Below, piece by piece: positions 2,851 through 24,700 of a stretch of DNA of 58,134 nt. Origin of the DNA: an uncultured Candidatus Saccharibacteria bacterium (GTDB lineage: Bacteria > Patescibacteriota > Minisyncoccia > Phycocordibacterales > Phycocordibacteraceae); NCBI GenBank assembly GCA_964366435.1, contig CAYITJ010000001.1:1-58134 (forward strand), written 5' to 3'. The position numbers were made by a program, and so were the translations under genes. The notes beneath the pieces were generated by a model. It was not told where the DNA came from. It saw nothing but the letters and a program-made list of their open reading frames with translations, and ran no database searches. Within the stretch, counting starts at the first letter, position 1, and each line of letters begins with the position of its first letter.

Positions 2851-2990
2851 CTTGTGGTATAGTGTCCCTGTTCGAGTAAATGGGCTGTGCTCGGGATAAA
2901 ACTCGGGCTGTACCAGTTGCTTGCACTGGTACGATCCCTCACTCGATAAGAATACATACAAGCAGACTTGTAGTTATTCTTCTCTCGTTC

Positions 2991-3063
2991 GGGCCGTTAG
3001 CTCAGTTGGTAGAGCATCTCATTTGCAATGAGAGGGTCGCAGGTTCGAATCCTGTACGGTCCA
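2991..3063 (+). tRNA. tRNA-Ala (anticodon TGC)
   Basis: It folds as a 73-nt cloverleaf. The anticodon loop is tttgcaa, the G3:U70 Ala identity pair is present, the T-loop is ttcgaat, and no CCA is encoded. Confidence 0.95.
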
Positions 3064-4683
3064 CATTCGTTCACTTTTTGCCTCGAAAGAGGCAATTTGT
3101 GTATATTCTTCCTCACTATTTAGAGGTTCTAATATTCCCAAATCGCCATTTGCGACCCTAGGGTACTTTATTAGAACTTCTACAGGCGTCTCTACTTGGA
3201 AAGTAAGTACGCCCTGGTCCAAGACATGCTCGGTTCCAAGGGAGGCGATAATAGCTCTCCGCTTTTCAAAGCTGCCGTTCTTGAATTCCTTGCTTGCCTT
3301 CTCAGCAAAGGTTAGGAGTCTGTCAGCATCCTCTGTCCAGTCGAACGGGGTAATCACACCACCAGTCAGATAGGGCTTCAAAGCCTCTATTTGCTCCTCG
3401 TAGGACTTTTTCTTTTCGGTGAACATGGATATATCAACACGTCCAAGCATGTGTGCATCGACTAAGTTTCCGAGCATAAGCTGAAGCTCGTCATGTTTTG
3501 TTTGGTGAATGTTTTCGATAGCGGTCTTATCCAACTCCTCTCTATCGAACTCCTTTCGTACTTCCTTCATTGCCCAGGCATGGAACTCTGGTGATATCTG
3601 TATGGATGATAGAAAGTCCTGCATGGATTCTTCCAAACGATCCTCACGGACAGATTTCTGTTCGCAATTCTTGTCTACCTGACCAGTACAACGGTAGTAG
3701 GAGTAATTATGGATGTTTCCATTCTTTTGCTTCTTGGTCTTCTTCTCACAAGTTATACGCGCTCCACATCCACCGCAACGCATTAGTCCCATGTATGCAA
3801 ATTTCTGCTTCAATCGTTTTGGAGCATTCTTCTTGAGTATTTTCTGTATGGTCTGGTATTCATCAAAAGTGATGAGAGGCTTGTGGGTTCCTTTAATCCA
3901 AATCCTCTCCTGTTTACCGTTAGCATCCTTCTTGCTCACGGGATACTGAAACTTCCCGTAAAAGAAGGGATTCTGCAAAATCTTGTACCAGGCTGATTTG
4001 GTCAGCTTAAGCCCGCGAGGATTCTTCTCGGTAGGTCGTGTACGAAGTCCCCATTCTTCCGTAGCAATCTCCAAAACCTGCGGAGCGTTATGTGTTCCGG
4101 TAAGCATGCAGTCAATCATCTTTCGTATGATTGGAGAGCGTACAGGGTCAGGGTAAATAAACTCCTCTCCCTTATTACTGCCGTTGCTATTCAAATATCC
4201 TAGAGGGGCAGAGCCAGGTCGTCTTCCGCTTTCTGCTTTGGTTCGCATTCCTCGCGTGACATCTTTACTGAGGTTGAGACTGAACTGGTTCGACATGCCA
4301 AAGTGCATATATAGAAGGAGCATGTCGCTATCTGGGTAGTAGTCCCCATCGTCAGTCTTCAGGTGTTTTATGACTCCTTGTTGAAGCTTCCAAGTAATCC
4401 AACCACCATCAACAGGATTACGGGCAAGACGGTTAATCTTCCAACAGACGATGCCTTGAACATCACCAGATTCAATATCTCGTTTCATGTCCTCAAAGAA
4501 TGGCCTGCCTGGTATCTTGGCAGACTTCAACTCCTTATATGTCTTGGTGATGCGTAGTCCTTTCCCGATACGCTCAATTTCCTTGAGCTGGTCAGGAATT
4601 GAGTTCACCTGCTTGTCCTTGTCATCCGTAGACTTGCGAGCGTAGGCTACATATTTAATTTTGGATGTGTCTAATACTTGCAT
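3019..4683 (-). CDS. large serine recombinase (integrase)
   Basis: The catalytic region reads YARKSTDD and INRLARN. A recombinase domain (PLGY) and a zinc ribbon (CGGCGARITCEK..YYRC) follow. The last 15 codons are antisense to the tRNA-Ala 3' half. Confidence 0.9.
   Translation of the reverse strand: MQVLDTSKIKYVAYARKSTDDKDKQVNSIPDQLKEIERIGKGLRITKTYKELKSAKIPGRPFFEDMKRDIESGDVQGIVCWKINRLARNPVDGGWITWKLQQGVIKHLKTDDGDYYPDSDMLLLYMHFGMSNQFSLNLSKDVTRGMRTKAESGRRPGSAPLGYLNSNGSNKGEEFIYPDPVRSPIIRKMIDCMLTGTHNAPQVLEIATEEWGLRTRPTEKNPRGLKLTKSAWYKILQNPFFYGKFQYPVSKKDANGKQERIWIKGTHKPLITFDEYQTIQKILKKNAPKRLKQKFAYMGLMRCGGCGARITCEKKTKKQKNGNIHNYSYYRCTGQVDKNCEQKSVREDRLEESMQDFLSSIQISPEFHAWAMKEVRKEFDREELDKTAIENIHQTKHDELQLMLGNLVDAHMLGRVDISMFTEKKKSYEEQIEALKPYLTGGVITPFDWTEDADRLLTFAEKASKEFKNGSFEKRRAIIASLGTEHVLDQGVLTFQVETPVEVLIKYPRVANGDLGILEPLNSEEEYTQIASFEAKSERMWTVQDSNLRPSHCK
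3078..3098 (+). terminator. hairpin with GNRA loop downstream of the tRNA
   Basis: The hairpin ttgcctc-gaaa-gaggcaa is followed by TTT. It lies inside the 3' end of the recombinase ORF on the opposite strand. Confidence 0.4.
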
Positions 4684-5576: not shown

Positions 5577-5747
5577 TTAGGTGGTTAGTTTCTTAATGCG
5601 TTTATGATTCTTCTTACGGTAGACACTCAGGTAGAGGTTGAGGAGAGTTCGTGCTTTCCGTTCCAAGTCTTCTTGGGATAGGTCTTTACCAAACTCCCAT
5701 TTGTAGATGTCATGGAATTTAGCAAGACTCCTTTCACTGACAGCCAT
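5577..5747 (-). CDS. hypothetical 56-aa protein (below the ORF-track cutoff)
   Basis: Hand translation gives MAVSERSLAKFHDIYKWEFGKDLSQEDLERKARTLLNLYLSVYRKKNHKRIKKLTT. Its ATG overlaps the stop of the PrimPol gene (TAATG), suggesting coupling. Confidence 0.4.
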   Translation of the reverse strand: MAVSERSLAKFHDIYKWEFGKDLSQEDLERKARTLLNLYLSVYRKKNHKRIKKLTT

Positions 5748-7567
5748 TAGTAAGGTGGCTCAGTGTCGTCTTCAGTGAGTGAGGCAGGTTCGAGGTGGTA
5801 CTTGTTCTTCTTTCCCTCCTTCGTAATCGTTAAGGTTCCTTCTTTCACCATGTCCGAAAGTGCCTGTACGATATTGCGCGTTCCTATCTCCGCTTCGTCC
5901 TGGACGGCTTTAATAATCTCCTCCTTGGTGGAGTCGTCTTGTGAGAGAAAGGTGGTGATGAATGGCTTTGCTTCAGCCTTCTTCACGACGTACTCCTCAA
6001 TCGGCGCGTAGCGAAGTTCGATAAGACCCTTCTCAACATCCAAGTCTTGAGTGAGAACCATTTTGAACTTCGGCTGGCTTGGTCCTCGTCGGGACTTCAC
6101 ATGCTCGATTTCAATGTTCTGTACTGCGTGGGTGTTGTCTTTCTTCTCAACGGTGATGTGGGAATCAAGACGACCAGAGTAGGCAGAGGAACCGCGAAGG
6201 CTCTGTGCTCCTCCAGGAGCACCCATGGCACTCTTTCTGTGGTGATGGATGAAGAGCACTGTCGTCCCAGCAGCTACGAGTTTCTGCATGCCTTCGAGGA
6301 CTTTCTGTGCTCCTTCGGCAGAGTTCTCATCCTGGCTGTGAATTGCCGCGAACGGGTCAATCATGACAAGTCCTATCTCCTGCTCGCGAATAGTCTTGAG
6401 AAGAAGGTCGATATCCTTCTCGTTGTCGAGCTTGAATCCGTTGAGACAATAGAAGTAGATAGGGAGTTCAGCAGAATAGCCGAGTAGCTCCAAGCGGCGG
6501 CGTTGTTCCCATGCGCCCTGCTCCTCATCTACGATGAGTACTTTCCCTTGCTTCGTTCGGAAGTATCCGAGGAAGGATTCTCCCGTTGCTACTGACTTTG
6601 CAAGGTGGAGCATGAACCAGCTCTTTCCACTCCCAGGATGACCACTCAAAGCCGTAATGCCGTGTTCTGGTACGAGTCCATGAACAAGGAACTCTGGTCG
6701 TTCGGACTCAGGCAGATTCATGATTGCTGACATGGCTAGAAGGACACGAGGGGAGGAAGGTGTATCACCAACCTCCTTATCAAAATAGACAGTCCCTTCA
6801 TCCCCTTGGGCGTGTTGCTTCTGGGCGATTCCGCGAAAGATAGACATCACTTCATTCTCGGGAAGCGGCGGCTGGTTAGCAGACTCGTTCCAAGCATGAA
6901 GGAGAGGTAGGGCAACATCTTTCCAGTCTTTTCCTGGAAGGTGATGTAGGAGCTTTCCTGCGAGCTTCACTGCCGTATCGTGTCGCGTACCTTTGGTAGC
7001 TCCATCCAAGACTGCTTTCCAGTCGGTAGCTTCAAGGTCGTTCTTCTTACGATCATCTTCAATTTTGACGAGCCACTCTGGCATGGGAGCCAGTTCGGTT
7101 TCCAGTTCGAGAGGAGTAATCCACTCATAAGCTTTGCCTGTCGTGGGATGAATAGAAGGAGGTACTACGACGTAGCCTCCGTCTGCTTTCATGTCTCCAT
7201 GGATTCCAGAAGGAATGAGGCTTCCTGACTTAACGAAGTCCGTGTCCTTCGGGAAGTCGAAGAAATAGTGCCAGCCTCCGCTACCGGTACGGCTAACGGC
7301 TGTCGGCGGTATTTCAAAGCGGGTAGGGTCTTCGTCGTTCTCCAAGTCGAGAACGGCAAGTCCGTGGACGTATCCCGTGACCATTCCCAGTCCTGTGATT
7401 CGGTCTCCGTATGTGTTGAACCACTCCGTCATTTCCTCGGGCGTTGGGGCTTTGCCTTCCTGATACTCCTTCCAGGAAGGGATTACAGGAACCTTCCCGT
7501 TGAGAGGGATGACGGTTCGGCAGTCATCGAGGTAGCCGAGAGCTGCTTTAAGTAGCTCAGACTGCAT
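5747..7567 (-). CDS. bifunctional primase-polymerase (PrimPol) N-domain fused to a RecA/RepA-like P-loop ATPase (replication protein)
   Basis: PrimPol motifs are VIPLNGKVP, LAVLDLEN and RTGSGGWHYFF. The C-terminal part has Walker A GHPGSGKS and Walker B VLIVDEE. Confidence 0.85.
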   Translation of the reverse strand: MQSELLKAALGYLDDCRTVIPLNGKVPVIPSWKEYQEGKAPTPEEMTEWFNTYGDRITGLGMVTGYVHGLAVLDLENDEDPTRFEIPPTAVSRTGSGGWHYFFDFPKDTDFVKSGSLIPSGIHGDMKADGGYVVVPPSIHPTTGKAYEWITPLELETELAPMPEWLVKIEDDRKKNDLEATDWKAVLDGATKGTRHDTAVKLAGKLLHHLPGKDWKDVALPLLHAWNESANQPPLPENEVMSIFRGIAQKQHAQGDEGTVYFDKEVGDTPSSPRVLLAMSAIMNLPESERPEFLVHGLVPEHGITALSGHPGSGKSWFMLHLAKSVATGESFLGYFRTKQGKVLIVDEEQGAWEQRRRLELLGYSAELPIYFYCLNGFKLDNEKDIDLLLKTIREQEIGLVMIDPFAAIHSQDENSAEGAQKVLEGMQKLVAAGTTVLFIHHHRKSAMGAPGGAQSLRGSSAYSGRLDSHITVEKKDNTHAVQNIEIEHVKSRRGPSQPKFKMVLTQDLDVEKGLIELRYAPIEEYVVKKAEAKPFITTFLSQDDSTKEEIIKAVQDEAEIGTRNIVQALSDMVKEGTLTITKEGKKNKYHLEPASLTEDDTEPPY

Positions 7568-11877: not shown

Positions 11878-11880
11878 CTT

Positions 11881-12612
11881 ATGAAGATTGTCTCCCTTAA
11901 CACATGGGCAGGAGTAGTTATAGAGCCTCTTCTTGATTTCTTTGAGAAATACAATGAGGTGGATGTTTTCTGCTTGCAGGAAATATATAGCCAAGCAGAA
12001 GGTAAAACTGACCCGCATCCAGAACTCGACATGAAGCTCGATTTATTCGAGCGGATTGAGAAGCGGCTAAAAGATACTCACGAAGGATATTTCCGACCCG
12101 CACATAAGGATTATTACGGACAAGCTATCTTCGTAAAGAAGAGTATTCAGGTTGAGGAGGAAGGAGATATTTTCATATATCAGAACCCTGACCCCGAAGG
12201 TCGAGGACGACACAGTAGGAATCTTCAGTACATACGGACTACCGTAAATGGGAAACCAACAGTTATAGCCAACCTACATGGTCTATGGAATGGCATGGGA
12301 AAGACGGATACAGATGATCGTCTTGAGCAAGGTCGTAGAATACGAGAATTTGTAGGCAAACGGTCAGAGCAAGTAGTTGTGGTTGGAGACTTCAATCTAA
12401 ATCCTGACACACAGAGTCTTGCTTTGGCAGAAGAAGGCATGAGAAACCTAGTAAAGGAGTACGGTATTACTTCTACACGTACCAGCTTTTATGAGAAAGA
12501 AGGAAAAATGGCAGACTACGCTCTTGTATCTCCAGAAATGAACGTAACTGATTTCAAGGTATTGCCTGATGAAGTATCAGACCATGCAGCGCTCTATCTG
12601 GAGATTCAATAA
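11881..12612 (+). CDS. endonuclease/exonuclease/phosphatase (EEP) family protein
   Basis: Motifs are SLNTW, DVFCLQEI, VVVGDFNLNPDT and SDHAALYLEI. Confidence 0.8.
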   Translation: MKIVSLNTWAGVVIEPLLDFFEKYNEVDVFCLQEIYSQAEGKTDPHPELDMKLDLFERIEKRLKDTHEGYFRPAHKDYYGQAIFVKKSIQVEEEGDIFIYQNPDPEGRGRHSRNLQYIRTTVNGKPTVIANLHGLWNGMGKTDTDDRLEQGRRIREFVGKRSEQVVVVGDFNLNPDTQSLALAEEGMRNLVKEYGITSTRTSFYEKEGKMADYALVSPEMNVTDFKVLPDEVSDHAALYLEIQ

Positions 12613-12616
12613 CAGT

Positions 12617-13003
12617 ATGAAAAACCTTAAGCTCACAGTAAGAATTAACAAGCCGATTGCAAAAGTCTTTGAATTCACTACCAATCCATCAAATACTGCG
12701 AAGTGGATTGATTCTGTCGAAGGAGAGAAGGCTGAATCTTTCCCTCCAGAAATCGGAACGATATATAAAAACTGGGACGCTACTGGAAAGATAAATGAGT
12801 ACAGGGTCACTCAATACGAACCATCGAGAGTATTCCAGCTCGACGCTACACATCAGGATTACAAAGTCCGCTACACCTACACACCAATTTCCGAGAACGA
12901 GACAGAGCTTGAATACTACGAATGGAGTGAGTCTGACCAGCTCCATGCGCCTTTCATGCAGGAGATTTTGGATAAGTTGAAAGAAGTAATGGAGTCTGAG
13001 TAA
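12617..13003 (+). CDS. SRPBCC-superfamily (AHSA1/START-like) ligand-binding protein
   Basis: LKLTVRINKPIAKVFEFTTNPSNTAKWI is typical of the SRPBCC N-terminus. The start was moved to the ATG at 12617, after the EEP stop. Confidence 0.6.
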   Translation: MKNLKLTVRINKPIAKVFEFTTNPSNTAKWIDSVEGEKAESFPPEIGTIYKNWDATGKINEYRVTQYEPSRVFQLDATHQDYKVRYTYTPISENETELEYYEWSESDQLHAPFMQEILDKLKEVMESE

Positions 13004-13004
13004 T

Positions 13005-13307
13005 ATGCTTCTTAACTGGGATATTTACGAAATAAGGTGCGATTGCAAAACATTACATGGCATTAAGCTACGAGGACGTATTCGTAAGTTCGCAATGGAT
13101 AACGACATTACTTGTATTATCGAGAATGCTTCAGATGAGGAGAATGTTGTGCGCTTTGCGCTAATTGCTGATTCAGACTCAGGGCCAGTATCGAGTTTTG
13201 TTAAGAGCATTCTTCCTGAAGCTGTTATTACAGAGTCTCTAAAGAGCATACCTAATCCAGTTCTATCAAAGCTGAAGGTCAATGATTCGGCCAGGTACGA
13301 GATATGA
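13005..13307 (+). CDS. hypothetical protein, weakly acylphosphatase-like
   Basis: It is 100 aa. The pattern LHGIKLRGRIRKFAMDNDITCIIEN..VRFAL loosely follows the ACYP fold. It lies 1 nt after the upstream stop. Confidence 0.4.
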   Translation: MLLNWDIYEIRCDCKTLHGIKLRGRIRKFAMDNDITCIIENASDEENVVRFALIADSDSGPVSSFVKSILPEAVITESLKSIPNPVLSKLKVNDSARYEI

Positions 13308-13942
13308 CTACGAATGAGCTAGCCAAGATCGTTTGGGACTATATGCTCATGAACCAAGAGCTTGAGAAAGCCGATGCAATACTCGTTCTTGGAAGCAGTG
13401 ATTTGCGAAAGGCTGAATATGCTGCTCAGCTTTATCACGAAGGATGGGCATCACTACTCATCTTCTCTGGCGGAGAAGGAAGAACAACAGCAGGTCTTTG
13501 GGGAATGAGTGAAGCAGAAAAATTCGCCTCGATTGCTATAGAGAAAGGCGTACCACCCGAAGCAATTCTGTTAGAGAAGAAATCTACGAACACTGGCGAG
13601 AACATCCGCTTCACAAAGGAGCTTCTCGAAGAGCAGGGAATACATCCAAAGAAGATAATCGTTGTACAGAAGCCCTACATGGAACGTCGTACCTACGCGA
13701 CCTTTATGAAGCAGTGGCCCGGTATGGATTTCATCGTTACCTCTCCGAAAATATCGTTTGAAGACTATCCGCAAGAAGGGAGGTCTATGGAACATATCAT
13801 CAACATGATGGTTGGCGATCTTCAGCGAATTAAAGAATACCCAGCTCTTGGTTTCCAGATAGAGCAAGAGATTCCTGGAAGCGTGTGGGATGCATATGAA
13901 CAGCTAGTATTGCAAGGCTTCACAGAGCAGCTTATTAAGTAG
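13304..13942 (+). CDS. DUF218/YdcF-family protein
   Basis: It carries ADAILVLGSSDLRKAEYAAQLYHEGWASLLIFSGGEG and VVQKPYMERR. Its start overlaps the upstream stop (ATGA). Confidence 0.7.
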   Translation: MTTNELAKIVWDYMLMNQELEKADAILVLGSSDLRKAEYAAQLYHEGWASLLIFSGGEGRTTAGLWGMSEAEKFASIAIEKGVPPEAILLEKKSTNTGENIRFTKELLEEQGIHPKKIIVVQKPYMERRTYATFMKQWPGMDFIVTSPKISFEDYPQEGRSMEHIINMMVGDLQRIKEYPALGFQIEQEIPGSVWDAYEQLVLQGFTEQLIK

Positions 13943-13946
13943 TCAT

Positions 13947-14705
13947 ATGGATTCAAGGAAACTTCTCCCCATATGTAATAGCCTTCTTGAGGCATACAAA
14001 ACAGGAAAGCTTGGACAAACTGTAATGCCTGAGGATTCAAATCCAGGATTTAAAGATACCGAAATAGAAGAACGCCTCTCGTACTTCACGTTTCCAATGG
14101 CTCTCAATTACCAAAGAGATAGCTATAAACTTTGGGAGGCAGCACTCAAGACCTTTCAAGATTCAGAGACTAACTTCGTGTTTGACGTAAAAGAAGTATC
14201 CTCACGTTCCGAAGAGCAAGTCAGACTGGCTTTAATGAAATACAAGCTTGCTCTACAGCCAAACAAGCACGTAAGCACGTGGCGTACCATTGCTAAGACC
14301 ATACACGAAAACTGGGGTTCGTTTGAGAATCTTATAAAGGCTACTGATAGAGATTTCCTAACCCTTAAGCAACTCTTACAGGTTGATTACAAGAAGGGGT
14401 TTCCATACCTCTCAGGTCCAAAGATATTTAACTATTGGTCTTTCATTATTAGTACCTACGGAAGTATCAAGCTTAAAAACAGAGACCAGATAGATATTGC
14501 TCCAGATACCCACATCACTCAGTGCTCTGTGCGAATTGCCGTCATAACACAGGAGGAGGCAGAGAGGCTATCAAAAGAGCAGATATCAACTCGATGGAGA
14601 GAATTACTTGTAGACTCAGGTATTGACCCAATAGATATGCATTCACCACTTTGGTTTTGGAGCAGAAACGGATTCCTCTACGAACTTCCACGAGGTCCTG
14701 TTTAA
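13947..14705 (+). CDS. hypothetical protein (possible HhH-type DNA-binding or base-excision fold, low confidence)
   Basis: It is the 252-aa last gene of the operon. The motif GFPYLSGPKIFNYW is reminiscent of HhH-GPD hairpins, with no firm assignment. Confidence 0.55.
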   Translation: MDSRKLLPICNSLLEAYKTGKLGQTVMPEDSNPGFKDTEIEERLSYFTFPMALNYQRDSYKLWEAALKTFQDSETNFVFDVKEVSSRSEEQVRLALMKYKLALQPNKHVSTWRTIAKTIHENWGSFENLIKATDRDFLTLKQLLQVDYKKGFPYLSGPKIFNYWSFIISTYGSIKLKNRDQIDIAPDTHITQCSVRIAVITQEEAERLSKEQISTRWRELLVDSGIDPIDMHSPLWFWSRNGFLYELPRGPV

Positions 14706-14722
14706 GATTAATAAAGTAAAGA

Positions 14723-14750
14723 GGTTCTAATCTGTTATCAAGAAATGCCC
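14723..14750 (+). repeat. diverged copy of the GGTTCTAAT..CAAGAA(A)TG motif
   Basis: ggttctaatctgttatcaagaaatgccc compares with ggttctaatatcgtgcaagaatgaccac at 14833-14860. It lies 18 nt after the operon stop codon. Confidence 0.4.
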
Positions 14751-14835
14751 AAAAGGGACGTAGAGTGAGTCAGCATTAGTCCCAAGAGTCTACGCACCGT
14801 AAGAAATGTATAGGTTTTACTTGGTGGAAATAGGT

Positions 14836-14860
14836 TCTAATATCGTGCAAGAATGACCAC
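14836..14860 (+). repeat. left half (X) of the interrupted insertion site
   Basis: tctaatatcgtgcaagaatgaccac is 24/25 identical to 20260-20284. Confidence 0.75.
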
Positions 14861-14864
14861 TTGG

Positions 14865-14894
14865 AAAATCTCTTGTGAAAACAAGGGATTTTTT
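14865..14894. terminator. bidirectional GNRA-loop hairpin at the left end of the insertion
   Basis: The hairpin aaaatctcttgt-gaaa-acaagggatttt has flanking A and T tracts. Confidence 0.5.
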
Positions 14895-14898
14895 CGTT

Positions 14899-14945
14899 CA
14901 CCGTACGAAAGGTTCGAACCCTGACTCGTGCTCTACCAACTTGTC
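14899..14945 (-). pseudogene. tRNA-Ala-derived fragment lacking the anticodon arm
   Basis: The minus strand reads agttggtagagca, 13/13 identical to the tRNA-Ala D-region, joined directly to gagtcagggttcgaacctttcgtacggt. That second part resembles the variable loop, T-arm and acceptor of tRNA-Ala at 2991-3063. Confidence 0.5.
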
Positions 14946-14946
14946 G

Positions 14947-15273
14947 CTAATCTACGTCTAGGCAGTTGTCTCCGCAGAGGATCTCGAACAGGTGGTTTTC
15001 GAGATCGCACACGGCAGCCTCAGTGTCCCGCAGGAGTTCGCGAATTGCGCGTCCTGAGAAGAGGAGATCGAGATGGATATCGCGGTGATCCTCGGGTGAC
15101 ACCAGGTCCAGTAGATTGCGCGGTTGGCGCATTTTCATGGGCAGATGGTTGGGTTGATAGGTCGGACGCTCGACCAGACGTCCAACCGTATGTTCGACTA
15201 GAATAGGGATTAGCACACGGCTGCTTTTGCTCCGAATTGGGGCGCTATCGCAACGATCAACTAAGTCGTGCAT
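14947..15273 (-). CDS. hypothetical protein (uncertain, since GC-rich DNA gives spurious ORFs)
   Basis: This 108-aa ORF is divergent from the KAP NTPase gene. No motif was seen. The opposite-strand ORF 14928..15206 is Arg-rich and less protein-like. Confidence 0.3.
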   Translation of the reverse strand: MHDLVDRCDSAPIRSKSSRVLIPILVEHTVGRLVERPTYQPNHLPMKMRQPRNLLDLVSPEDHRDIHLDLLFSGRAIRELLRDTEAAVCDLENHLFEILCGDNCLDVD

Positions 15274-15282
15274 AATCTAACT

Positions 15283-17004
15283 ATGGGAATCGACGCGTTT
15301 AAATCCGAGATCGACCGCTTTCTCGCATCCTCTGATGCGGAGGTGTTGGTAATTAGCGGAAAGTGGGGTGTCGGTAAGACGTTTGCTTGGAACAAGTTCC
15401 TCCGCGAAGCGCGGGACCGACTCAAAGGAATTGCGCTTGAGCGATACGCTTACGTTTCGCTTTTTGGCCTGGGCGACCTAGGCGAGGTCCGCCAGGCGGT
15501 GTTCGAGAACACAGTCGGCAGGGCAAAGGCGGGCGAGGTCGCGGATCTCACGAGCCTTGAAAGTGGGATCAAGACAGCGACGGGAGGCTGGCGAAAGGCA
15601 GCGGGCCTCCTAAGGATGGCCAGCCCTCTCGCTGACTATGCGGCCGCCATCGACAAGATCGGCTTCTTTAGTGTGCGCAAACAGGTTGTCTGCATTGACG
15701 ACCTTGAGCGGAAGAGCGGCTCGCTGGAGATGCGAGACATCCTCGGGCTTGTTTCGTTCTTGAAGGAGCAGCGAGCCTGCAAGGTTGTCGTGCTCCTGAA
15801 CGATGAACAGCTGGGGGCTGACGACGCAGAGTTTCGCATTCAGCTTGAGAAGGTAGCGGATACCACAATCCGCTACCAACCGACGCCGGCCGAAGCGGTG
15901 GAGATTGGCGTCGACAGGTCAAAGCCTCATCATGAAGTGATCGTTCAGGCATGTTCAGCGTTTGGAATTGTGAACATACGGACGATCAAGAGGCTTGAGC
16001 GGCTTTCAGCCCGGCTCAGTGAGATACTTGCCGGCTACGATGTGCGCGTGATCCGGCAAGCGGTACACACTGCCTCCTTGTTTGGATACACGAAGGTGCA
16101 GCCGGACCAGGCTCCAACCATAGAATTCCTAAAGACCTATGGTCCCTACGATGGGCTTCTTGCTCGCGACAATCAGCCACTTTCTCATCCCGAATGGCGA
16201 GAGATGCTCCGACAGTACGACTTCGGATCGATCGACGAGTTCGATGCAGTTTTACTTGAAGGCGTCGAAGCAGGGCACTTTGATCCGGCTAAGCTCAAGC
16301 GTGCAGCCGATATCGCCAGCAGGCGTCTACAACACGTCGATAATGAACACGCCTTTAGCGCTGCGTGGGAGCTGTACCACAACTCCTTTGGTGACAATCA
16401 AGCTGAGGTCACAGGCGCACTTGTCGCGGCTCTGCGCGCTGCTCCTTCGGTGGTAACCCCCACCAACCTTTCCGGAACGATCACACTGCTCAAGGAGCTA
16501 AACTGGGAAGGAAACATAGGCCAGCTCATCTCGGAATACATTGACGGGCGCGACGACGGTCGCGAATTCTGGGACTTGAATGAAAGTTCCTTCGGCGGTG
16601 AGGTGCGAGACTCTGACGTGCGCAATGCGTTTGAGGCGAAACTGGCGACATTTGAAGACGGTCGTGATCCAGAGGAAGTGCTGAAGCGAATTGGTGAGGA
16701 GCGCGGGTGGGGGCGAGACGATGTTCGTTTCCTGTCTCTCCAGTCACCAGCGACTTTGCGCGAGATATTCAAACGGCTTTCGGGAACCGACTTTCACCGC
16801 GCGCTTCGCGGAGGTCTCATGTTCCGGAACATCCAGAACGCCGATGCCGAGATGCAACTGGTGACGTCGAATGTCGAGGCGGCGCTGAGGGAAATCGGCC
16901 AAGAGAGTCCGATCAATCTCCGTCGCGTGCGTCAGAAGGGGATACAAGTAGACGATCCGCCTCAGCCGCCGTCCAGTGCAGTTGGCGACCAGCAGGAAGC
17001 TTGA
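15283..17004 (+). CDS. KAP-family P-loop NTPase (no obvious TM insert)
   Basis: Walker A is VISGKWGVGKTFAWNKFL and Walker B is VVCIDDLERKSG..LGLVSFLKE, the characteristic KAP pattern. The start is set at the ATG at 15283; a GTG at 15268 is possible. Confidence 0.8.
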   Translation: MGIDAFKSEIDRFLASSDAEVLVISGKWGVGKTFAWNKFLREARDRLKGIALERYAYVSLFGLGDLGEVRQAVFENTVGRAKAGEVADLTSLESGIKTATGGWRKAAGLLRMASPLADYAAAIDKIGFFSVRKQVVCIDDLERKSGSLEMRDILGLVSFLKEQRACKVVVLLNDEQLGADDAEFRIQLEKVADTTIRYQPTPAEAVEIGVDRSKPHHEVIVQACSAFGIVNIRTIKRLERLSARLSEILAGYDVRVIRQAVHTASLFGYTKVQPDQAPTIEFLKTYGPYDGLLARDNQPLSHPEWREMLRQYDFGSIDEFDAVLLEGVEAGHFDPAKLKRAADIASRRLQHVDNEHAFSAAWELYHNSFGDNQAEVTGALVAALRAAPSVVTPTNLSGTITLLKELNWEGNIGQLISEYIDGRDDGREFWDLNESSFGGEVRDSDVRNAFEAKLATFEDGRDPEEVLKRIGEERGWGRDDVRFLSLQSPATLREIFKRLSGTDFHRALRGGLMFRNIQNADAEMQLVTSNVEAALREIGQESPINLRRVRQKGIQVDDPPQPPSSAVGDQQEA

Positions 17005-17042
17005 TGTCATTCGAGGACAGATAGGCGATTTCAGATTTACGC

Positions 17043-18233
17043 ATGTGGTTGACCCATCGAAGCAAAAGGTGCGCTGAACTCGATGATTGGGTTTTTCGCA
17101 GATTGTTGACCTTCTATCCGGAGGAGGAACTTCTCAGTCGTCCTGTGCTGGCAAAGTCACTTACGGATGGTGAGATTACGAAGGCGGATCTCCAGAAGGA
17201 GGCCAGCGTTCACTTCATCCCGTGGCAAATGTTTCTGCTGTCGAAGGACAAGCTCAAGGCCCAGTTGAGAAACATTGAAAGGGTGCGGCTGGACAAGATC
17301 CAGGTCGCCGAACTCTCAAGCCGCGCAGGTGGAGCCGGGCCGACGCCCTACCGGCTCATTGACCGCTACATTCGCACTCAGACTTTTCTAACGAGCACCG
17401 AAAGATACGATCCAAACCGGTTCAGCGGTTCGCTGAAAGGGCTGTCGGTCGAGCGATCAATCGGGCGGATCGAGGCGCACTTTGCAATAAATCGTGCCGA
17501 ACTTTGGGAAGCCTCTTCGAAGGAGAAGGCGCTGGAATATCTCATAGAACGGCTGGGGGACGGTCAGGTAAACGTGGCGCTCGGCACCTCGGAGGCGCGG
17601 CTGGTTCCCTCGTCGAAGAACCTTCGGTCGCTCTACAGGAATGTGAGCGGGTTCTGCCTGAAAGACGCCAGGGTGCCGTTCCTGTTTGTGAACATGAACA
17701 TGGCTGACGAAGAGGAGCCGGTTGGTCGCCGTCTCTATACGCTGACGCTCCTCCTCGTATTGGTTGGGCTCGGCGTCTTCTCCGTCACGCGCGACTGGAG
17801 GCCGGGACGGACCCCGCACCGAGCAAAGGACACGTACCTTCCTCATGCGCACAAGATCGTCTCAGAGTTCTTCCTTCCTAGCCCAGTCATAGCGGCCCAT
17901 CGTGGCCAGCAAGTTACGTCCGAGACCGTCCAAGAGGTCGCCACCCGATACAAGCTAACTCCAACCGCCGTGATCTATCGTTTCTGGAGGGAGAAGATCA
18001 TCACGGCGGCGGAAAGGGAGCTGCTGACGCAGCCTCCGGTGGCCATCAAGCGTCGGGCTCGGTCGCCCCGGATCGACAATGCAGTGCGCAAGCTCAACGG
18101 CCGGCTGGTCACTACTGCTGCCCAGAAAGCCTATGCTAGCGGCGCAATCACCGCGAACCAGGCACAGTACGTGTTGTTCGGAAGAATTAGCCGGAAGACG
18201 TGGCGCAAGTACAAGGCGCAATTGGGTCTATGA
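17043..18233 (+). CDS. ImmA/IrrE (M78)-like protein with a degenerate metal site (predicted pseudo-peptidase)
   Basis: FLFVNMN..GRRLYTLTLLLVLVGLG aligns to the usual RxRFTLAHELGHxxLH but without H/E/H. HAHKIVSEFFLPSP aligns to E.EAN.FA..fLmP. VATRYKLTPTAVIYRF aligns to the C-terminal helix of the family. Confidence 0.6.
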   Translation: MWLTHRSKRCAELDDWVFRRLLTFYPEEELLSRPVLAKSLTDGEITKADLQKEASVHFIPWQMFLLSKDKLKAQLRNIERVRLDKIQVAELSSRAGGAGPTPYRLIDRYIRTQTFLTSTERYDPNRFSGSLKGLSVERSIGRIEAHFAINRAELWEASSKEKALEYLIERLGDGQVNVALGTSEARLVPSSKNLRSLYRNVSGFCLKDARVPFLFVNMNMADEEEPVGRRLYTLTLLLVLVGLGVFSVTRDWRPGRTPHRAKDTYLPHAHKIVSEFFLPSPVIAAHRGQQVTSETVQEVATRYKLTPTAVIYRFWREKIITAAERELLTQPPVAIKRRARSPRIDNAVRKLNGRLVTTAAQKAYASGAITANQAQYVLFGRISRKTWRKYKAQLGL

Positions 18234-18676
18234 TTCGCATCCTGGACAACAATGCCCTCGATGCCCTGTACAAGAGCGCTCGCCGCTTGCGGCAGGAGCA
18301 CTGTTGCTATGTCCCTCCGGAGATTGTCGAGGAATTCACTGATGCTGACCGCGAAGAGAGTTGGCTGAGATCGCAGCCGTTGGTCAATCCCAGGATCGAT
18401 GAAGCGGATTTCCTTGCTCGCTACGCAATTCATATCAACCGATACAACGGCGTCTCATTCTACAATCAGAAGGGCTTTGGAGACGTTGCCATTCTGGCAA
18501 CGCTCGACATTCTTGTTGGAAGGCTTCCGTCTACTCGGGCACTCTCGCAGGAGCTTTTCCCGGAGGATCGAATTTTCTTGGTGAGTGACGATGGTAAGCT
18601 TCGGAAGGCGACTGCGAAGAACTTCGGAACCGATGTGACCGTTGAGACCGTCGAGGAGTTTCTATCGAGGTGCTAG
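18230..18676 (+). CDS. PIN-like nuclease-fold protein (DUF4411-like)
   Basis: Its ATG overlaps the upstream TGA (ATGA). Motifs are MIRILDNNALDAL, FGDVAILATL and FLVSDDGKLRKA, a PIN-like acidic-residue pattern. DUF4411 typically pairs with ImmA/IrrE genes. Confidence 0.6.
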   Translation: MIRILDNNALDALYKSARRLRQEHCCYVPPEIVEEFTDADREESWLRSQPLVNPRIDEADFLARYAIHINRYNGVSFYNQKGFGDVAILATLDILVGRLPSTRALSQELFPEDRIFLVSDDGKLRKATAKNFGTDVTVETVEEFLSRC

Positions 18677-18781
18677 CGGTAAGGCCGATGGGGGACGTAG
18701 ATGACTTTAGGGACGTAACGAGCCTCCTGACCGCATCTCTTGTCTGCGCTGAAGTTCGAACCTGGGCCCGAGCTGGTCCAC

Positions 18782-18823
18782 AAAATTAAAACCCCGATGC
18801 GCAAGCATTGGGGTTTTGATAAT
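18782..18823 (+). repeat. right half (W) of the interrupted insertion site, including a terminator hairpin at 18788-18817
   Basis: aaaattaaaaccccgatgcgcaagcattggggttttgataat is 38/42 identical to 20285-20326. It forms a 13-bp stem with a GCAA loop. Two stem differences between the copies are compensatory. Confidence 0.75.
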
Positions 18824-18832
18824 TTTGTAGGG

Positions 18833-18848
18833 CCGTACAGGATTCGAA
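18833..18848 (-). repeat. inverted copy of the tRNA-Ala(UGC) T-loop/acceptor segment
   Basis: ccgtacaggattcgaa is the exact reverse complement of 3043-3058 (ttcgaatcctgtacgg). Confidence 0.7.
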
Positions 18849-18973
18849 AGACGGAGGGGCGCGCTGAGAATCTCTTGAGCGAAGCAATTAGAGATTCCAA
18901 GTGCTCCTGGGGTGAAGACACGCGTAGTGTGTGGCCGAGTCCGGCCTGACGCACTTAACGAGTCTTCGACTTA

Positions 18974-20254
18974 GTGACGGGAGGCGAAAGCGTCTTCGCG
19001 TATCCTGTACGGTTCAACCCAAATAGGATACTTGCGTCTGGTGTGATGGAGTATAATCTTTCTATGAACATAGAAGACGCTGGAGGCAAGGGTCCTGAGA
19101 AGAAGGAACTTAGCGAGAATGAGAAAGAGTCCTTAATCAGAGGTACTCATTCATTCGATCAGTTGTATGCAGCTATAGATAAGATTGGCGCTTTTCAGGG
19201 AAGCCAAGAAACATTTGATGCGTCGCAACTCAGAGATAAGGTCGATCGTGCCCGAAGTGGCGCTATAGATATTACCTACATTACCCGTGCCCATGGGTTG
19301 CGGGAGACTGTGGCGCGCCTGCTTCAGTCCGCGACTTCAGATGAACAGGTAGTTACAGAAGAAGCTCCTGCGCTATCAAATCCAAGCGAGGAAGTGTCGG
19401 TGCCGACTGAAGCAGCATTAGCAGAGAGTCCTGAGTTGGAGGAAGCCCCCTTAGGTGGCTCAGCTATTGAAAGCCTGCCGCAGCAGGAAAAGCTTTCTGT
19501 CATTGATTTCACAGCCGAACAAATAGAGGATGCGAGGGAAGAGATGGAAGCAGAACTGCTCGAAAGGAAGAAAGTCGAGATAATTTCTAGGGCGGCCGAG
19601 GATGCTTCAAATGAACGTGTCAAGCAAATGGTTGTAAAGATAAATCGCAGCCTAAATGGCCGGGCTGAGGGTGCGAACGTTTGGGAAGGCGTTCGTGCTC
19701 AATTAGATCGGAGAGCTCAACAGGATTTGTCTTCACTTTTGCAGACCGTGCGTACTGAGGCTGAACCGAATTCCATCTTATCTCAAGTTGCTGCAGCGAT
19801 TGACAAGGATTATTCGACATCTCGAGGGGGTGTCGTGGACAACACCATTGCAGGGAGCCTTCTTTCCGAATATATTCAGGAACGCGGTACTGAACTTACG
19901 GGAGAGGAATTAGGAGAAGTTGAAGATGCTCTCCACCTGATTGGCCTATCTGCTCAACAGAAATTCTTTCAGTTCCAAAACGCGGAGCAGCTGAGGATTG
20001 TTGCACAAGCTCAGGAAGACTTAATTAGGTGTAACGATGAGTTTGATCCAGCGCGATCTGGGTTTTTTGAGTTGCGAAATGCTATGGAAAGTGCACGAGC
20101 TTCAATTCGGCTTGACTTGAACACTAAGCCAAACTATCAATATTCTCATCCAGAGTATTCAGTGAGAGATGGACACATCTTACGTGTTCTATCCAGCCTC
20201 CATACGATAGAAGCTCTGAAATTCCTCAAGGAACATGACATTGAAATTGAGTAA
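18974..20254 (+). CDS. hypothetical acidic protein (start uncertain; ATGs at 19046 and 19064 are alternatives)
   Basis: This long ORF of 426 aa has a Glu-rich central region and no recognised motif. The annotated 5' end overlaps the att-like repeat, so a later start is likelier. Confidence 0.6.
   Translation: MTGGESVFAYPVRFNPNRILASGVMEYNLSMNIEDAGGKGPEKKELSENEKESLIRGTHSFDQLYAAIDKIGAFQGSQETFDASQLRDKVDRARSGAIDITYITRAHGLRETVARLLQSATSDEQVVTEEAPALSNPSEEVSVPTEAALAESPELEEAPLGGSAIESLPQQEKLSVIDFTAEQIEDAREEMEAELLERKKVEIISRAAEDASNERVKQMVVKINRSLNGRAEGANVWEGVRAQLDRRAQQDLSSLLQTVRTEAEPNSILSQVAAAIDKDYSTSRGGVVDNTIAGSLLSEYIQERGTELTGEELGEVEDALHLIGLSAQQKFFQFQNAEQLRIVAQAQEDLIRCNDEFDPARSGFFELRNAMESARASIRLDLNTKPNYQYSHPEYSVRDGHILRVLSSLHTIEALKFLKEHDIEIE
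19002..19016 (+). repeat. direct repeat of the tRNA-Ala(UGC) 3' end (putative right att core of the island)
   Basis: atcctgtacggttca compares with atcctgtacggtcca at 3049-3063, a 14/15 match. Confidence 0.7.
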
Positions 20255-20259
20255 TCGGC

Positions 20260-20326
20260 TCTAATACCGTGCAAGAATGACCACAGAATTAAAACCCTAA
20301 TGCGCAAGCATTGGGGTTTTAATAAT
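20260..20326 (+). repeat. uninterrupted (empty) copy of the X|W insertion site, including a terminator hairpin at 20291-20320
   Basis: tctaataccgtgcaagaatgaccac|agaattaaaaccctaatgcgcaagcattggggttttaataat joins the X half seen at 14836 and the W half seen at 18782 across CCAC. Confidence 0.75.
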
Positions 20327-20344
20327 CGGGTATACTAATCCGTA

Positions 20345-20938
20345 ATGGATAGATTTCCTTCGGCTCCAGGTAGCAAAGTTGAAAGGCCCCCACAATTGCT
20401 TTCTGAGGTTGAGCCCATTATGGAGGGCGGTCTTGTTCTCCGTAAGAGGGAGGATATAGATAGGCTCGTAGAATTTCCGCTCGTAGATGCCTGCAGGGCG
20501 CTTTACGATAAGAACATTCAAACCTGGCAGTCGAGCGCTAATAAACAAGACTTGCTGAATGGGGCGGTGCGAATAACGATAGATTACGAGTCTCTTTCAG
20601 AAGAGAATAAACTGATTGCGGAAGAGATTGGAAAGTTATGGAAGTATGAAGAAAGAGAATTAGTGAGCCTATCTGTTCCTGTGTCGGAGGTCACCGTGAT
20701 TGCCGAAATTCAGACGCGCATGGGAGCTCTGGTTGATAGGCTCCTGCCTCAGCCTCCAGCATGGATTGAGGCAAGAACCGTTGATGATTTTAGTGCAATC
20801 TACGGCTCCAATTTAACGGAACAAGACCTAAAAGATTGGCCAGAGGAAGAGGGTGGTTGGTATTTCGATGAGAAGTCGCACTTGTTCTACCCTAGTGAGG
20901 AGCAGTTTAAGAAGGTTAAGGAGTATCAAGATAAGTAG
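20345..20938 (+). CDS. hypothetical protein
   Basis: This 197-aa ORF has coding-like composition and no motif. An internal Met (MEGGLVL) is an alternative start. Confidence 0.55.
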   Translation: MDRFPSAPGSKVERPPQLLSEVEPIMEGGLVLRKREDIDRLVEFPLVDACRALYDKNIQTWQSSANKQDLLNGAVRITIDYESLSEENKLIAEEIGKLWKYEERELVSLSVPVSEVTVIAEIQTRMGALVDRLLPQPPAWIEARTVDDFSAIYGSNLTEQDLKDWPEEEGGWYFDEKSHLFYPSEEQFKKVKEYQDK

Positions 20939-21726: not shown

Positions 21727-24700
21727 ATGACCATTTCACAAAAGCTTACGAGCTTTGTGCGCGGTGCATCATTCGCATTTCTTGCGACTGCACTTTTATT
21801 CAGTGCTGGTCCAGGTGTAGCTTTTGCAGCTGCTCCCGTTGCCCTTGGTGATAGCTACACTGCCACCATCAACACCCCTTTGTCCGTGAATACGGCCAGT
21901 GGTGTTCTTGCGAACGATACTGACGACCTTGGTCCGCTTGCCGCTACAGCAGTAGTGGCAGGAGCGACGTCTCAGGGTGGAGTGTACGACCTGAGCGCAG
22001 ACGGTTCCTTTGTCTACACTCCTCTTACTGGATTCACCGGAGTGGACACGTTTGCCTACGAGGTGAACGATGCGGCCCTCGAGGGTCCGTCTGTTGCTTC
22101 TGTAGAAATCACGGTGGAGGACCCTTCTGTGGCAAATGTGGATACGGAGGTGGAGCTGGAGGCGGCTTTGGCTAATCCCGCTATAGAAACGATTAACATT
22201 ACCGACGATATAGTCGGTATCACTAATACCATTGTGGTAGATCGTGAAGTGACCATACAGGGAGGAGGGAATACTCTGACTTTCTCAGGACTGGAGTCAG
22301 CTACTCCAAATGACGAAGCGGTCACCATTGTTGCCCCCGCAACCATCAATAATTTGGTCATCGACGCAAATCTTGCGTCCACGACCTCATGGGTGGGGAC
22401 CTATGGTCTTCAGGTCTATAACTCTACAGCAACGCTCTCGGACATCACTGTGACGGGTGCAAACGGTGGAATGTACGCCAACAACTCAACTGTAGTGCTG
22501 TCGGGAACAATTACCGTATCTGGAAACGGATTTGGTGGTATTGAGTCATCAGGTGCGAGCGCCTCTCTAGATGTTTCAGGAGCCTCGTTGGTTAATACAT
22601 CAGAGGCGTACGGGTTTCCTACTATCTGGGAGGATGGCCTGACGGGCACAACAGTTGTTAACTACGGTTCCATTACTCGAATCACAAAGGGTGTGCAGTA
22701 TCAGTACTACCTTTCCGACGAGAATTCAAAGATTCCTCAGATAATCACCTTTGCTGACCCAGTAGATGTTATCTATGGCGACGCTTCGTCCATCGTTGTG
22801 GCGCCTACGGCAGATTCTGGCCTCACTGTTTCTGTGACAACCAGTGGAACGTGTACCAACACTGACTTCACCATTGACTTTAGTGTTGTGGGGACCTGTA
22901 CAGTAACCGCGTCTCAAGCGGGGGATTCAGAATATGCGCCTGCTGCAGACGTGGTTCAATCATTCGCTATCGCTCCTCGTCCAATTACGGTGCTCGCTAT
23001 TGCGGCAGACAAAGAATACGACACTACAACATCCTCATCAGGAGTTCCTATTCTTTCTGGCACCCTCGCTACAGGAGATGATGCAGTGTACACACAGACC
23101 TACGCGGACGAGAATGTAAACCCTGGTATTACACTCACACCACTTGCAACCATAACCAATGGTGGTGACAACGTAAATTCAAGCTACGCAATCACGTACA
23201 TGACTGCTAGTGGAAGTATCAGTGCCGTTTCTCTTACCCCCACAACGCTTGCCGCAAGCAAGACCTACGACGGAGATGTGGATACGACAGCTACGCCAAG
23301 CGTCACCCCGCTCAGCGGAGACGATGTAACGGCCACGTATGTGAGCGCTACCTTCGACACCAAGGATGTGGGAACCCTAAAGACCGTGACAGTGTCTGGC
23401 ATCGCCCTTGATGGAGCACAGGCAGGGAACTACACACTCACCAGCACCACTGCTGCCGCGCAGGCAAACATCACTCAGGCACTCCTCTCTGCAGAAGTGA
23501 CCGTAGACAACAAGGTATATGACAACACCACTGCGGCAACTATTAACGGATACACACCAGTAGGGCTTGTGGGTATTGAAGATGTAACGATTAACGGCGG
23601 AGTCGCAACCTTTGACACCGAGCACGTTGGAAACGGTAAGATCGTTTCAGTCTCAGGACTTAATCTTGTGGCTGACTCGGTATCAAGCAACTACAGCTTT
23701 ACCGATATCGACATCACAACCGCAGACATCACAGAACGTGCAATCACTGTGACTGCCGTAACGGACACCAAGGTTTACGACGCTACGACCGCATCTGCGG
23801 GTGTGCCAGTCATCACAGGGCTTGGTCTCGCAGCGGGCGATACTACCGGATTCTCTCAGGTGTTTGACGACGTAGAGGCAGGAACAGGCAAGACGCTCTC
23901 TGCAGAGGGTGCTGTGAACGACGGCAATAATGGAGACAACTATGCAGTGACTCTAGCGACGGCACTCGGAACCGTAACGAAGGCACCGCTCACCATTACT
24001 GCAGACAACAAGACCAAGGTGTATGGAACAGCTAATCCTATTGCCACTGCAACCTACACTGGCTTTATGGGTGGAGAGGATGAGTCTGTGCTTGATACAG
24101 ACGTAACGCTTGTAATTGTGGCTAATAGCCAGACAGACGTAAACAATCACCCAATCACTGCGTTTGGTGCCGCAGACGATAACTACGCAATAACGCACGT
24201 AAACGGAAACTTGGAAATCACCAAGCTTCCCATTACCGCACTCGTCGTTGCAGACGATAAGGTATACGACGGCACCACTGATGCTGATGTAGCACTCACG
24301 CTCGACGGCGTGCTCTTCGCAGACGTGGTGACCGTTAGCAACACCGGCGCAGACTTCGACACGCAGGATGTGGGAACCCTAAAGACCGTCACTGCATCAG
24401 GCATTACGCTTGGTGGCGCTGACGCAGGCAACTACAGCATCACTGCTACGGCAACGGATACTGCAGACATCACTGTTGCGCCGCTTAGCGTGACCGCACT
24501 TCCTGCTACCAAGGTGTATGGAGATTCAGATCCTGAGTTCTTCTACACTTCAACAGGACTTATGGCAGGGGACTCATTTGCTGGAGCACTTGGACGCACT
24601 GTGGATGAGGGTGAGGACGTAGGTTTCTACGCGATAGATGAAGGTAGCCTGGATGCAGGGAGCAACTACGGTCCGGTCGTATTCACGTCTGCGAATCTGG

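Follow-up and report, generated by a model that had tools for sequence, protein, structure and literature searches.

Which process placed a 3.9-kb, GC-rich block that encodes no recombinase of its own among repeated sequences downstream of a tRNA-Ala gene in an uncultured Candidatus Saccharibacteria bacterium? The block occupies positions 14861-18781 of a 58,134-nt stretch of contig CAYITJ010000001.1 (assembly GCA_964366435.1), hereafter the window, and we refer to it as the KAP block after its gene for a KAP-family P-loop NTPase. An earlier note on the same DNA had interpreted it as an insertion that split a ~70-bp site into a left half, X, and a right half, W. Sequence comparisons indicate that the KAP block is a gene cassette of defence type that lacks a recombinase and arrived by horizontal transfer; its defence role is a candidate one. 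We consider it fairly probable that the whole region is a tRNA-anchored array of units, in which the KAP block is a cargo cassette inserted site-specifically, with a large serine recombinase (LSR) acting in trans as the candidate enzyme.

Boundaries and horizontal transfer of the KAP block

The right end of the block was located by comparison with two other genomes. Contig L013 carries positions 15199-18781 of the window at 90.9% identity, and its homology ends exactly at 18781, after GGTCCAC. Contig L172 carries positions 17035-18781 at 86.5% identity and ends at exactly the same nucleotide; its GC content of 58-64% suggests a source that is probably outside the lineage of the window. The BLASTN-type comparison that the earlier note had suggested thus yields an exact right end in both genomes, and the alignments identify 18781 as a genuine recombination point. 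On the left, contig L097 has a unit homologous to the one that ends in the tRNA-like copies X0 and X1 (copies X0 to X4 are listed in Table 1), and its sequence diverges directly after X1, which supports the tail of X1 as the junction.

Genes upstream of the variable region provide a measure of how closely the genomes are related. The uvrC, ddl and tRNA-Ala(TGC) genes of L013, which comes from a related organism, are syntenic with positions 1-3064 of the window, and uvrC and ddl are 73.5% and 71.1% identical, respectively. Since the cassette is ~91% identical while these flanking genes reach only 71-73%, the block moves horizontally and the cassette is younger than the lineage split. Its position also differs: in L013 it lies directly downstream of the orthologous tRNA-Ala, between the tRNA-Ala tail (…GGTCCAC) and X3 (…GGTCCAC), and in the window it lies between tRNA-like X1 and X3, 11.8 kb from tRNA-Ala. 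The uvrC-ddl-tRNA-Ala synteny is common to the window, L013 and L109, and the content downstream is different in all three.

Both junctions are covered by contigs assembled independently from other Hainich groundwater samples, the left one by L001 and L002 and the right one by L003 and L004, at 99.9-100% identity to the window; the arrangement is therefore not an assembly chimera. The first 44 nt of another contig, L007 (2x coverage), mismatch the window, probably as a contig-end artefact.

The composition of the block agrees in part with the earlier description of a GC-rich insert. At 56.2% GC the block exceeds its left flank (38.7-44%) and its right flank (47.5-51%), but the contrast comes largely from unusually low-GC neighbours: the whole window averages 51.5%, its core (26-58 kb) 52.9%, and the highest other 3.9-kb window 54.1%. 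The tetranucleotide distance reaches 0.312 for the block, where the mean is 0.193 (sd 0.048, max 0.335). Of the two composition steps expected at 14.86 and 18.78 kb, the left one is present at ~14943 rather than at 14861, past the tRNA-like fragment X2, where GC jumps to 56.6%, and the right one is gradual.

The block encodes four open reading frames (ORFs). The KAP protein matches KAP_NTPase in Pfam (4e-6), PDC-S49 in PADLOC (3e-20, confined to residues 28-212) and phrog_4740 in PHROGs (9e-57, full length). Its four closest homologs are 93%, 80%, 74% and 58% identical, and the other named ones, ~40-48% identical, come mainly from Alphaproteobacteria. Structure-database searches with the 396-aa and 158-aa proteins were uninformative. 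The 396-aa gene and its small downstream partner occur as a pair without KAP in L172 and in L173/L174, in defence islands with LSRs. In L172 a Gabija-like pair (an OLD/TOPRIM ATPase and a UvrD helicase; 360-3921) adjoins the 396+148-aa module, and in L173/L174 the module has a type II restriction-modification system on one side and a TIR-domain gene on the other; these neighbourhoods point to a defence-island context for the 396-aa module. Because L172 holds the 396+148-aa module alone, the block is a mosaic of KAP and a separately mobile two-gene module. KAP itself stands alone in L096 and within other integrative elements in L014; the three genes of the block therefore do not form a fixed operon.

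Domain searches of the four ORFs (Pfam, NCBIfam, PADLOC, PHROGs) found no recombinase domain and no transposase domain, and the repeat scan reported no terminal inverted repeat of the block, the only sequence that its two junctions have in common being the CCAC tail. In this respect the earlier account of a block with neither its own recombinase nor terminal inverted repeats was accurate. The GGTTCGAAC motifs had suggested a tRNA array or a tmRNA as an identity for the block, and this candidate was rejected when ARAGORN and Rfam, with a cutoff as lenient as E <= 10, gave no match in 14600-20500. The 58-kb window contains the palindromic 8-mer GTTCGAAC at two places only (14912 in X2, 18754 in X3), as does L013 (9379, 13471), and in both the pair brackets the high-GC cassette body; in L172 it occurs three times (5871, 5981, 6061), within 200 nt at the LSR end.

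A family of 27-nt elements anchored at tRNA genes

Sequence reading and a pattern search established that the X and W repeats are true repeats. X at 14836-14860 is identical to 20260-20284 at 24/25 positions (0 matches in 100 shuffles), and the repeat scan extends the pair to 14829/20253, with 29/32 identical. The hairpin core of W matches between 18788-18817 and 20291-20320 at 28/30 positions (0 in 100 shuffles), and W with its preceding CCAC does so between 18778-18823 and 20281-20326 at 42/46. Both junctions fall on CCAC, at 14857-14860 on the left and 18778-18781 on the right, as had been noticed before. X and W are contiguous at one place only in the window, 20260-20326. The reading of that place as an empty ~70-bp site did not hold: X is one copy of a family of 27-nt elements, and W, rather than being half of an insertion site, is a terminator hairpin that opens the next cassette, a layout that recurs in unrelated contigs. 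Since terminators commonly follow elements in other contigs, X-W at 20260-20326 is best understood as the boundary of two cassettes.

The conserved element reads GTTCGAATATCGTCCCAGACGGCCAGC, and X is a divergent member. Within the window X1 and X4 represent a variant with the tail GACCAC, and the X1 27-mer is identical in L109, from the same aquifer and with the same tRNA-Ala. In L012, a relative, GTTCGAATACCGTCCCAGACGGCCAGC is present in eight copies, one at each stop codon of a run of eight genes that opens with a homolog of the 252-aa gene that precedes X0 in the window. When metagenomes were scanned with a degenerate pattern matched by the L012 repeat as well as by X, at least 75 loci were returned. 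Scanning with a position weight matrix (PWM; threshold 14 bits, null maximum 10.7 bits) returned at least 155 distinct copies in at least 76 loci. Two or more copies were present in 42 loci, with a median spacing of 633 nt and no mixing of strands (0/42). An ORF ends no more than 20 nt before the element in 58% of copies, compared with 11% of random positions. Positions outside the search pattern are 71-91% conserved, with a TA(A/G) stop codon at −7 to −5. The ORFs beside the elements encode small accessory enzymes and toxins (NUDIX, S51 peptidase, AAA_33 kinases, HAD hydrolases, methyltransferases, HIT, APH, zeta toxin, CYTH). Folding energy of the element is not significant (z = −0.66, −1.15).

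No Rfam family matches the element, a scan of IMG/VR gave zero matches, and its motif string has no match in the searchable literature, where we also found no paper describing cassette arrays or tRNA-anchored islands in bacteria of the Candidate Phyla Radiation (CPR). Judged from contig names only, the family is apparently widespread in CPR/Patescibacteria and undescribed. Among 80 genome loci around homologs of the 252-aa gene, elements were found in L016 only, so that arrays have no fixed link to that gene. The repeats of L022 and L078 proved to be ordinary tRNAs and terminators.

The element mimics the 3′ end of a tRNA from T-loop to tail. At 15 loci a tRNA-Gln gene shares the strand of the elements and in most cases precedes the first of them by ~0.4-1.4 kb; in the window, L013 and L109 a tRNA-Ala takes its place. 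The tail of the element co-varies with the tail of the tRNA on the same contig (…GCAGC/…CCAGC, …GGTAGC/…GCTAGC and, for tRNA-Ala, …GTCCAC/…GACCAC), an observation that upholds the earlier proposal of CCAC as the exchange point. When the flanks that follow tRNA-Gln ends and those that follow elements were aligned at the junction, 28/30, 26/30 and 24/30 positions matched. Strain comparisons display the corresponding swaps: L117 and L131 are 99.8% identical up to an element and then unrelated, L117 and L121 have only an element and its downstream sequence in common, and one element-bounded cassette occupies different ordinal positions in L111 and L122. From the aligned flanks and the swaps we conclude that tRNA end and element are equivalent left-hand partners and that exchange occurs at the tail. 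These comparisons of sequence show the boundaries, the horizontal mobility and the element family, and also that the family is anchored at tRNA genes and that tRNA end and element are interchangeable.

Mode of insertion

These relationships can be assembled into a mechanism. The region downstream of tRNA-Ala(TGC) would be a flexible island of units integrated in tandem, each ending in an attachment element that resembles a tRNA 3′ end. Unit 1, from 3065 to ~14860, would consist of an autonomous LSR and Prim-Pol element together with resident genes and end in X0/X1. Unit 2 would be the KAP block (14861-18781), ending in X3 and possibly split at 14940 from a leader made of a terminator and X2; unit 3 (18782-20284) would comprise W, the 426-aa gene and X4, and unit 4, from 20285, would begin with W′ and a 197-aa gene. 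The KAP block would be a non-autonomous cassette, composed of the KAP NTPase and the separately mobile 396+158-aa module, whose recent entry would have been a site-specific recombination event at the tail, CCAC, of an element already resident. We infer a circular intermediate with an attP-like junction, …GTTCGAACCTGGGCCCGAGCTGGTCCAC|TTGGAAAATC…, which would recombine within the last 2-4 nt with the tRNA-Ala tail or with that of any resident element, the latter taking the role of attB; the identity of the recombinase, an LSR from an autonomous element at the same tRNA, and its action in trans are part of the same inference. For the 14861-18781 block the predicted circle junction is …CCCGAGCTGGTCCAC|TTGGAAAATCTCTTGTG…, with an alternative circle starting at 14941, and the predicted empty site is …CGTGCAAGAATGACCAC|AAAATTAAAACCCCGATGCG….

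Several observations support an LSR as the enzyme. The 3′ ends of LSR genes abut tails in three contigs: the window (tRNA-Ala, into whose tail the 3′ end of the LSR gene reads), L125 (a tRNA-Gln-like fragment) and L172 (X3). The LSR element of L125 has GGCTAGC tails on both sides, the one at its far end belonging to a canonical element. LSRs are also the only recombinase type among the families listed for 89 large ORFs near arrays. Measured from GTTCGA to where the tail ends, tRNA-Gln and tRNA-Ala span 22 nt, the elements 27 nt and X3 28 nt; X3 is tRNA-like but 6 nt longer than a true tRNA fragment. In large serine integrases the binding motif of the zinc-ribbon domain (ZD) lies 5 bp farther out in attP than in attB half-sites (PMC3783163), and the offset between element and tRNA arm is consistent with LSR attP and attB sites, without proving them. 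Taken together, an LSR acting in trans is plausible and the best candidate, with a chance that we put at roughly even.

A number of results weigh against this mechanism. The left boundary depends on the evidence used: by the logic of the site it lies at 14861, by composition and X2 at ~14941-14943, and the homology to L013 starts only at 15199. Moreover, ~55 nt after the tRNA of L013 are common to L109 and may be native flank, and because X1 is followed by its own hairpin (14865-14894) and then by X2 (14912-14940), the block may be two units. An empty X-W junction at this locus and a circular cassette junction, both of which had been suggested as checks, were found in no contig, and all contigs of the population carry the block. 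Close relatives of the 252-aa gene (L008-L012) likewise yielded no empty site, their intergenic DNA being unconserved at 79-83% protein identity, and a scan of IMG/VR for the cassette end gave zero matches. An inverted ZD-like motif is not enriched on the right side of the elements (36 observed versus 44 expected in the 45 nt beyond 108 copies), so that a canonical two-armed LSR site is not demonstrated for small cassettes; by eye, TCGAA-like strings can be made out at +19 to +26 beside the LSR genes of the window and L172. No recombinase lies within 3.6-6.6 kb of the tRNA in L013 and L109, the LSRs of the window and L172 are only 25% identical, and co-variation over a 4-nt tail suits a tyrosine recombinase equally. 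The earlier suggestion of trans-mobilisation by the LSR at 3019-4683 stays a plausible candidate. Its argument from a core of ~4 bp is not supported, since serine chemistry needs only 2 bp and a shared 4 bp is not diagnostic.

Much the same architecture could result from a different process, namely a tyrosine recombinase of the Xer or integron-like kind, a single-strand transposase of the HUH type that acts 3′ of a signal made of hairpin and tail, or homologous recombination or transformation through the 27-nt repeats. Such a process is compatible with the one-sided conservation and the exchange at a 3′ tail, with the 4-nt co-variation, with a small hairpin (CGTC-CCA-GACG) placed 6 nt before the tail in the element and with the HUH Rep-like ORFs that make up 2/89 large ORFs near arrays. 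A length of ~27 nt is, in addition, about the minimum for RecA-dependent exchange. We nevertheless regard it as unlikely: neither phage integrases nor Y1 transposases figure among the 25 families listed per ORF set, LSR genes abut tails in three independent contigs with an arm-length offset that fits LSR sites, and homology cannot have placed the KAP block, as X1 and X3 have only CCAC in common. A strict version of the earlier model, in which a dedicated ~70-bp X+W site existed as two paralogous copies, one of them interrupted at its middle by a single 3.9-kb element, with W as part of the recognition site, agrees with the contiguity of X and W at 20260-20326 and their separation at 14860/18782. 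The resemblance of W and W′ also reaches slightly past the hairpin (CCGTACAGGAT versus CCGTAATGGAT). Elsewhere only the X element, lacking W, is present. However, X1 is followed by a terminator hairpin of its own and a further tRNA-like fragment; and the same X variant is followed by unrelated sequence in L097 and L109. Nothing to the right of the element is conserved across 108 copies, and the succession of an element and some terminator hairpin is general, all of which makes a composite site quite improbable.

Finally, the 27-nt elements might be signals at the RNA level, acting in 3′ untranslated regions in tRNA-like processing or termination, with the block inherited vertically or an artefact. 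Their strict co-orientation with genes, their position near stop codons and the terminators that often follow would suit such a role. This interpretation is largely refuted by the L013, L172 and uvrC/ddl comparisons, and we hold it to be very improbable: the cassette is 91% identical where the flanking core genes are 71-73%, the 396-aa module recurs in a contig of 58-64% GC (L172), breakpoints in gene content coincide with elements, independent assemblies span both junctions, and Rfam has no matching family. A tRNA-anchored array with site-specific insertion of the KAP block accordingly remains the explanation that we prefer.

Known systems and the resident genes

Two known systems come closest, the genomic islands at tRNA and tmRNA genes of the Islander paradigm (Hudson, Lau & Williams 2015; PMC4383910) and the tycheposons of Prochlorococcus. 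As in the Islander islands, the anchor is a tRNA 3′ end, and tandem units are delimited by the tRNA and by tRNA-3′-like fragments in direct orientation. The KAP unit differs from them in having no integrase, the LSR being in a neighbouring unit. The fragments here are 5-6 nt longer than the tRNA arm and conserved across many contigs, and hence are not plain displaced copies, and the units are mostly single genes (median 633 nt). In the tycheposons of Prochlorococcus, elements with an integrase and a primase, together with cargo remnants, pile up behind a tRNA with partial tRNAs between them (Hackl et al., bioRxiv 10.1101/2020.12.28.424599); they carry a site-specific integrase, in some cases an LSR, and a primase/helicase, and new arrivals push older ones along (bioRxiv 10.1101/2020.12.28.424599). 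The window is similar in that its LSR (3019-4683) abuts tRNA-Ala, a Prim-Pol/AAA_25 gene follows at 5747-7567, the KAP block is cargo only, tRNA-like copies separate the tandem units at X0-X4, and downstream content differs between the window, L013 and L109. Unlike tycheposons, it belongs to Patescibacteria, LSRs rather than tyrosine recombinases are the only integrase type seen, and the cassettes are dense, integron-like pairs of ORF and element with a stop codon a few nt before the element; the likeness is one of architecture.

Integrons, and clusters of attC sites without an integrase (CALINs), share with these arrays their co-orientation, mostly single-ORF cassettes of ~0.2-1.3 kb that each end in a site, an accessory cargo (NUDIX, methyltransferases, kinases, toxins) and cassette differences between strains. 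By contrast, the element is a conserved 27-nt sequence and not a structured attC of 57-141 nt with R″/L″/L′/R′ boxes, its GTTCGAA mismatches the GTTRRRY core, its folding is not significant, and the arrays are anchored at a tRNA 3′ end instead of an attI beside intI. Neither IntI nor any member of the phage-integrase family was present in the window region or among the 25 families listed for the 89 large ORFs near arrays. The system therefore fails the defining tests for integrons (no IntI, no attC structure), and it fails those for transposons as well. Its resemblance to the attP and attB sites of large serine integrases (Rutherford et al. 2013; PMC3783163) lies in a T-loop-like motif whose distance to the crossover is 5 nt (6 for X3) greater in the P-like element than in the B-like tRNA, in exchange at a short common tail and in LSR genes that adjoin the junction. 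It differs in that the right half-site of small cassettes is not detectably conserved or symmetric, and the sites are known from sequence alone. No recombination directionality factor was identified.

We advance, as a tentative proposal that we place somewhat below an even chance, that many Patescibacteria possess an integron-like capture platform, in which the 3′ end of a tRNA (Gln, or Ala in this lineage) would be the entry site, each cassette would carry a tRNA-mimicking attP arm of 27 nt directly behind its stop codon, and LSRs from autonomous elements resident in the same genome, acting in trans, would insert, excise and shuffle cassettes, including those from other phyla such as the KAP block. 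If true, the problem of building cassette arrays, which integrons solve in one way, would have a second answer of independent origin. How CPR/Patescibacteria, with their tiny genomes, acquire genes is poorly understood. A searchable 27-nt marker would delimit mobile single-gene cassettes after tRNAs, so that the flexible gene pool could be mapped, and would help to date cross-phylum transfers, for which the KAP NTPase cassette, with modules also found in much higher-GC contigs, is a candidate. The elements are likewise candidate minimal att sites, offering short natural attB- and attP-like arms for serine integrases of an untapped phylum.

Table 1. Features of the window discussed in the text, by position
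Feature	Coordinates	Strand	Basis	Remarks
tRNA-Ala(TGC)	2991..3064	+	ARAGORN, Rfam	anchor of the variable region; 3′ end GTTCGAATCCTGTACGGTCCAC, 22 nt from T-loop to tail
LSR	3019..4683	-	Pfam Resolvase, Recombinase, Zn_ribbon_recom; NCBIfam XisF/Ccr-like	
Palindrome TAGAGGTTCTAATA-N34-TATTAGAACTTCTA	3121..3182	.		14-nt arms, 34 nt apart, in 3′ end of LSR ORF
Prim-Pol/AAA_25 replication protein	5747..7567	-	Pfam	part of LSR-bearing integrative element
252-aa HhH-glycosylase-like gene	13947..14705	+		conserved; last gene before X elements
X0	14724..14750	+		degenerate element copy, 18 nt past stop codon of 252-aa gene
X1	14834..14860	+	PWM, 24.7 bits vs null maximum 10.7	27-nt variant element GTTCTAATATCGTGCAAGAATGACCAC; tail CCAC; left junction
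Terminator-like hairpin	14865..14894	+	sequence, DNA fold centroid	directly 3′ of X1
X2	14912..14940	+		tRNA-3′-like fragment GTTCGAACCCTGACTCGTGCTCTACCAAC; GC jump begins just after
108-aa ORF	14947..15273	-		no family match; first 27 aa alone common to L013
KAP-family P-loop NTPase	15268..17004	+	Pfam, PADLOC, PHROGs	candidate defence gene
396-aa protein	17043..18233	+		no assigned function; travels with downstream small ORF as two-gene module
158-aa protein	18200..18676	+	profile searches, contig comparison	partner of 396-aa protein
X3	18754..18781	+		cassette-end element GTTCGAACCTGGGCCCGAGCTGGTCCAC, tRNA-Ala-like; tail GGTCCAC; right junction
W	18782..18823	+	pattern search, DNA fold	bidirectional terminator hairpin; begins next unit
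426-aa ORF	18974..20254	+		402 aa as called in source contigs; no family match; cargo of unit ending in X4
X4	20258..20284	+	PWM, 17.0 bits	tail CCAC; begins 4 nt past last stop-codon base
W′	20285..20326	+	repeat scan, DNA fold	second terminator hairpin copy; begins 197-aa gene unit

The remaining observations concern the surroundings of these features. The palindrome at 3121-3182 is attP-sized and bears the motif GGTTCTAATA, also present in X0, X1 and X4 (5 matches versus 0.58 expected). To the right of W, the repeat scan detected an inverted copy, 18/19 identical, of the tRNA-Ala 3′ end found in the window itself (18830-18848, minus strand), which forms with X3 a palindrome of ~100 nt around W (DNA fold z = −6.5); a degenerate version of this inverted copy is present after W′.

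A LOOT RNA (RF03000) lies inside the LSR/Prim-Pol element of the window (9341-9458, minus strand) and another beside an LSR in L012 (1686-1808); blastn also links the LOOT stretch to L008 and L170, and LOOT may be an RNA of LSR-type mobile elements. The LOOT RNA, together with the names borne by homologs of the 252-aa gene, marks the host as a Patescibacteria/Paceibacteria-type organism. Between 11263 and 14705 the CYTH, EEP, Polyketide_cyc2, DUF218 and 252-aa genes are tightly packed. They are of kinds seen as cassettes elsewhere, and the stretch from DUF218 to the 252-aa gene sits between two elements in L122, which suggests that 11263-14705 is an older, fused portion of the array. As in the window, the homologs of the 252-aa gene in L012 and L122 are directly followed by an element. 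Farther downstream, positions 21727-25845 encode a secreted, repeat-rich surface protein of 1372 aa with internal 97-nt repeats 1 kb apart, and six 21-nt tandem units in a GAGGA-rich coding region (28663-28830) encode an acidic repeat.

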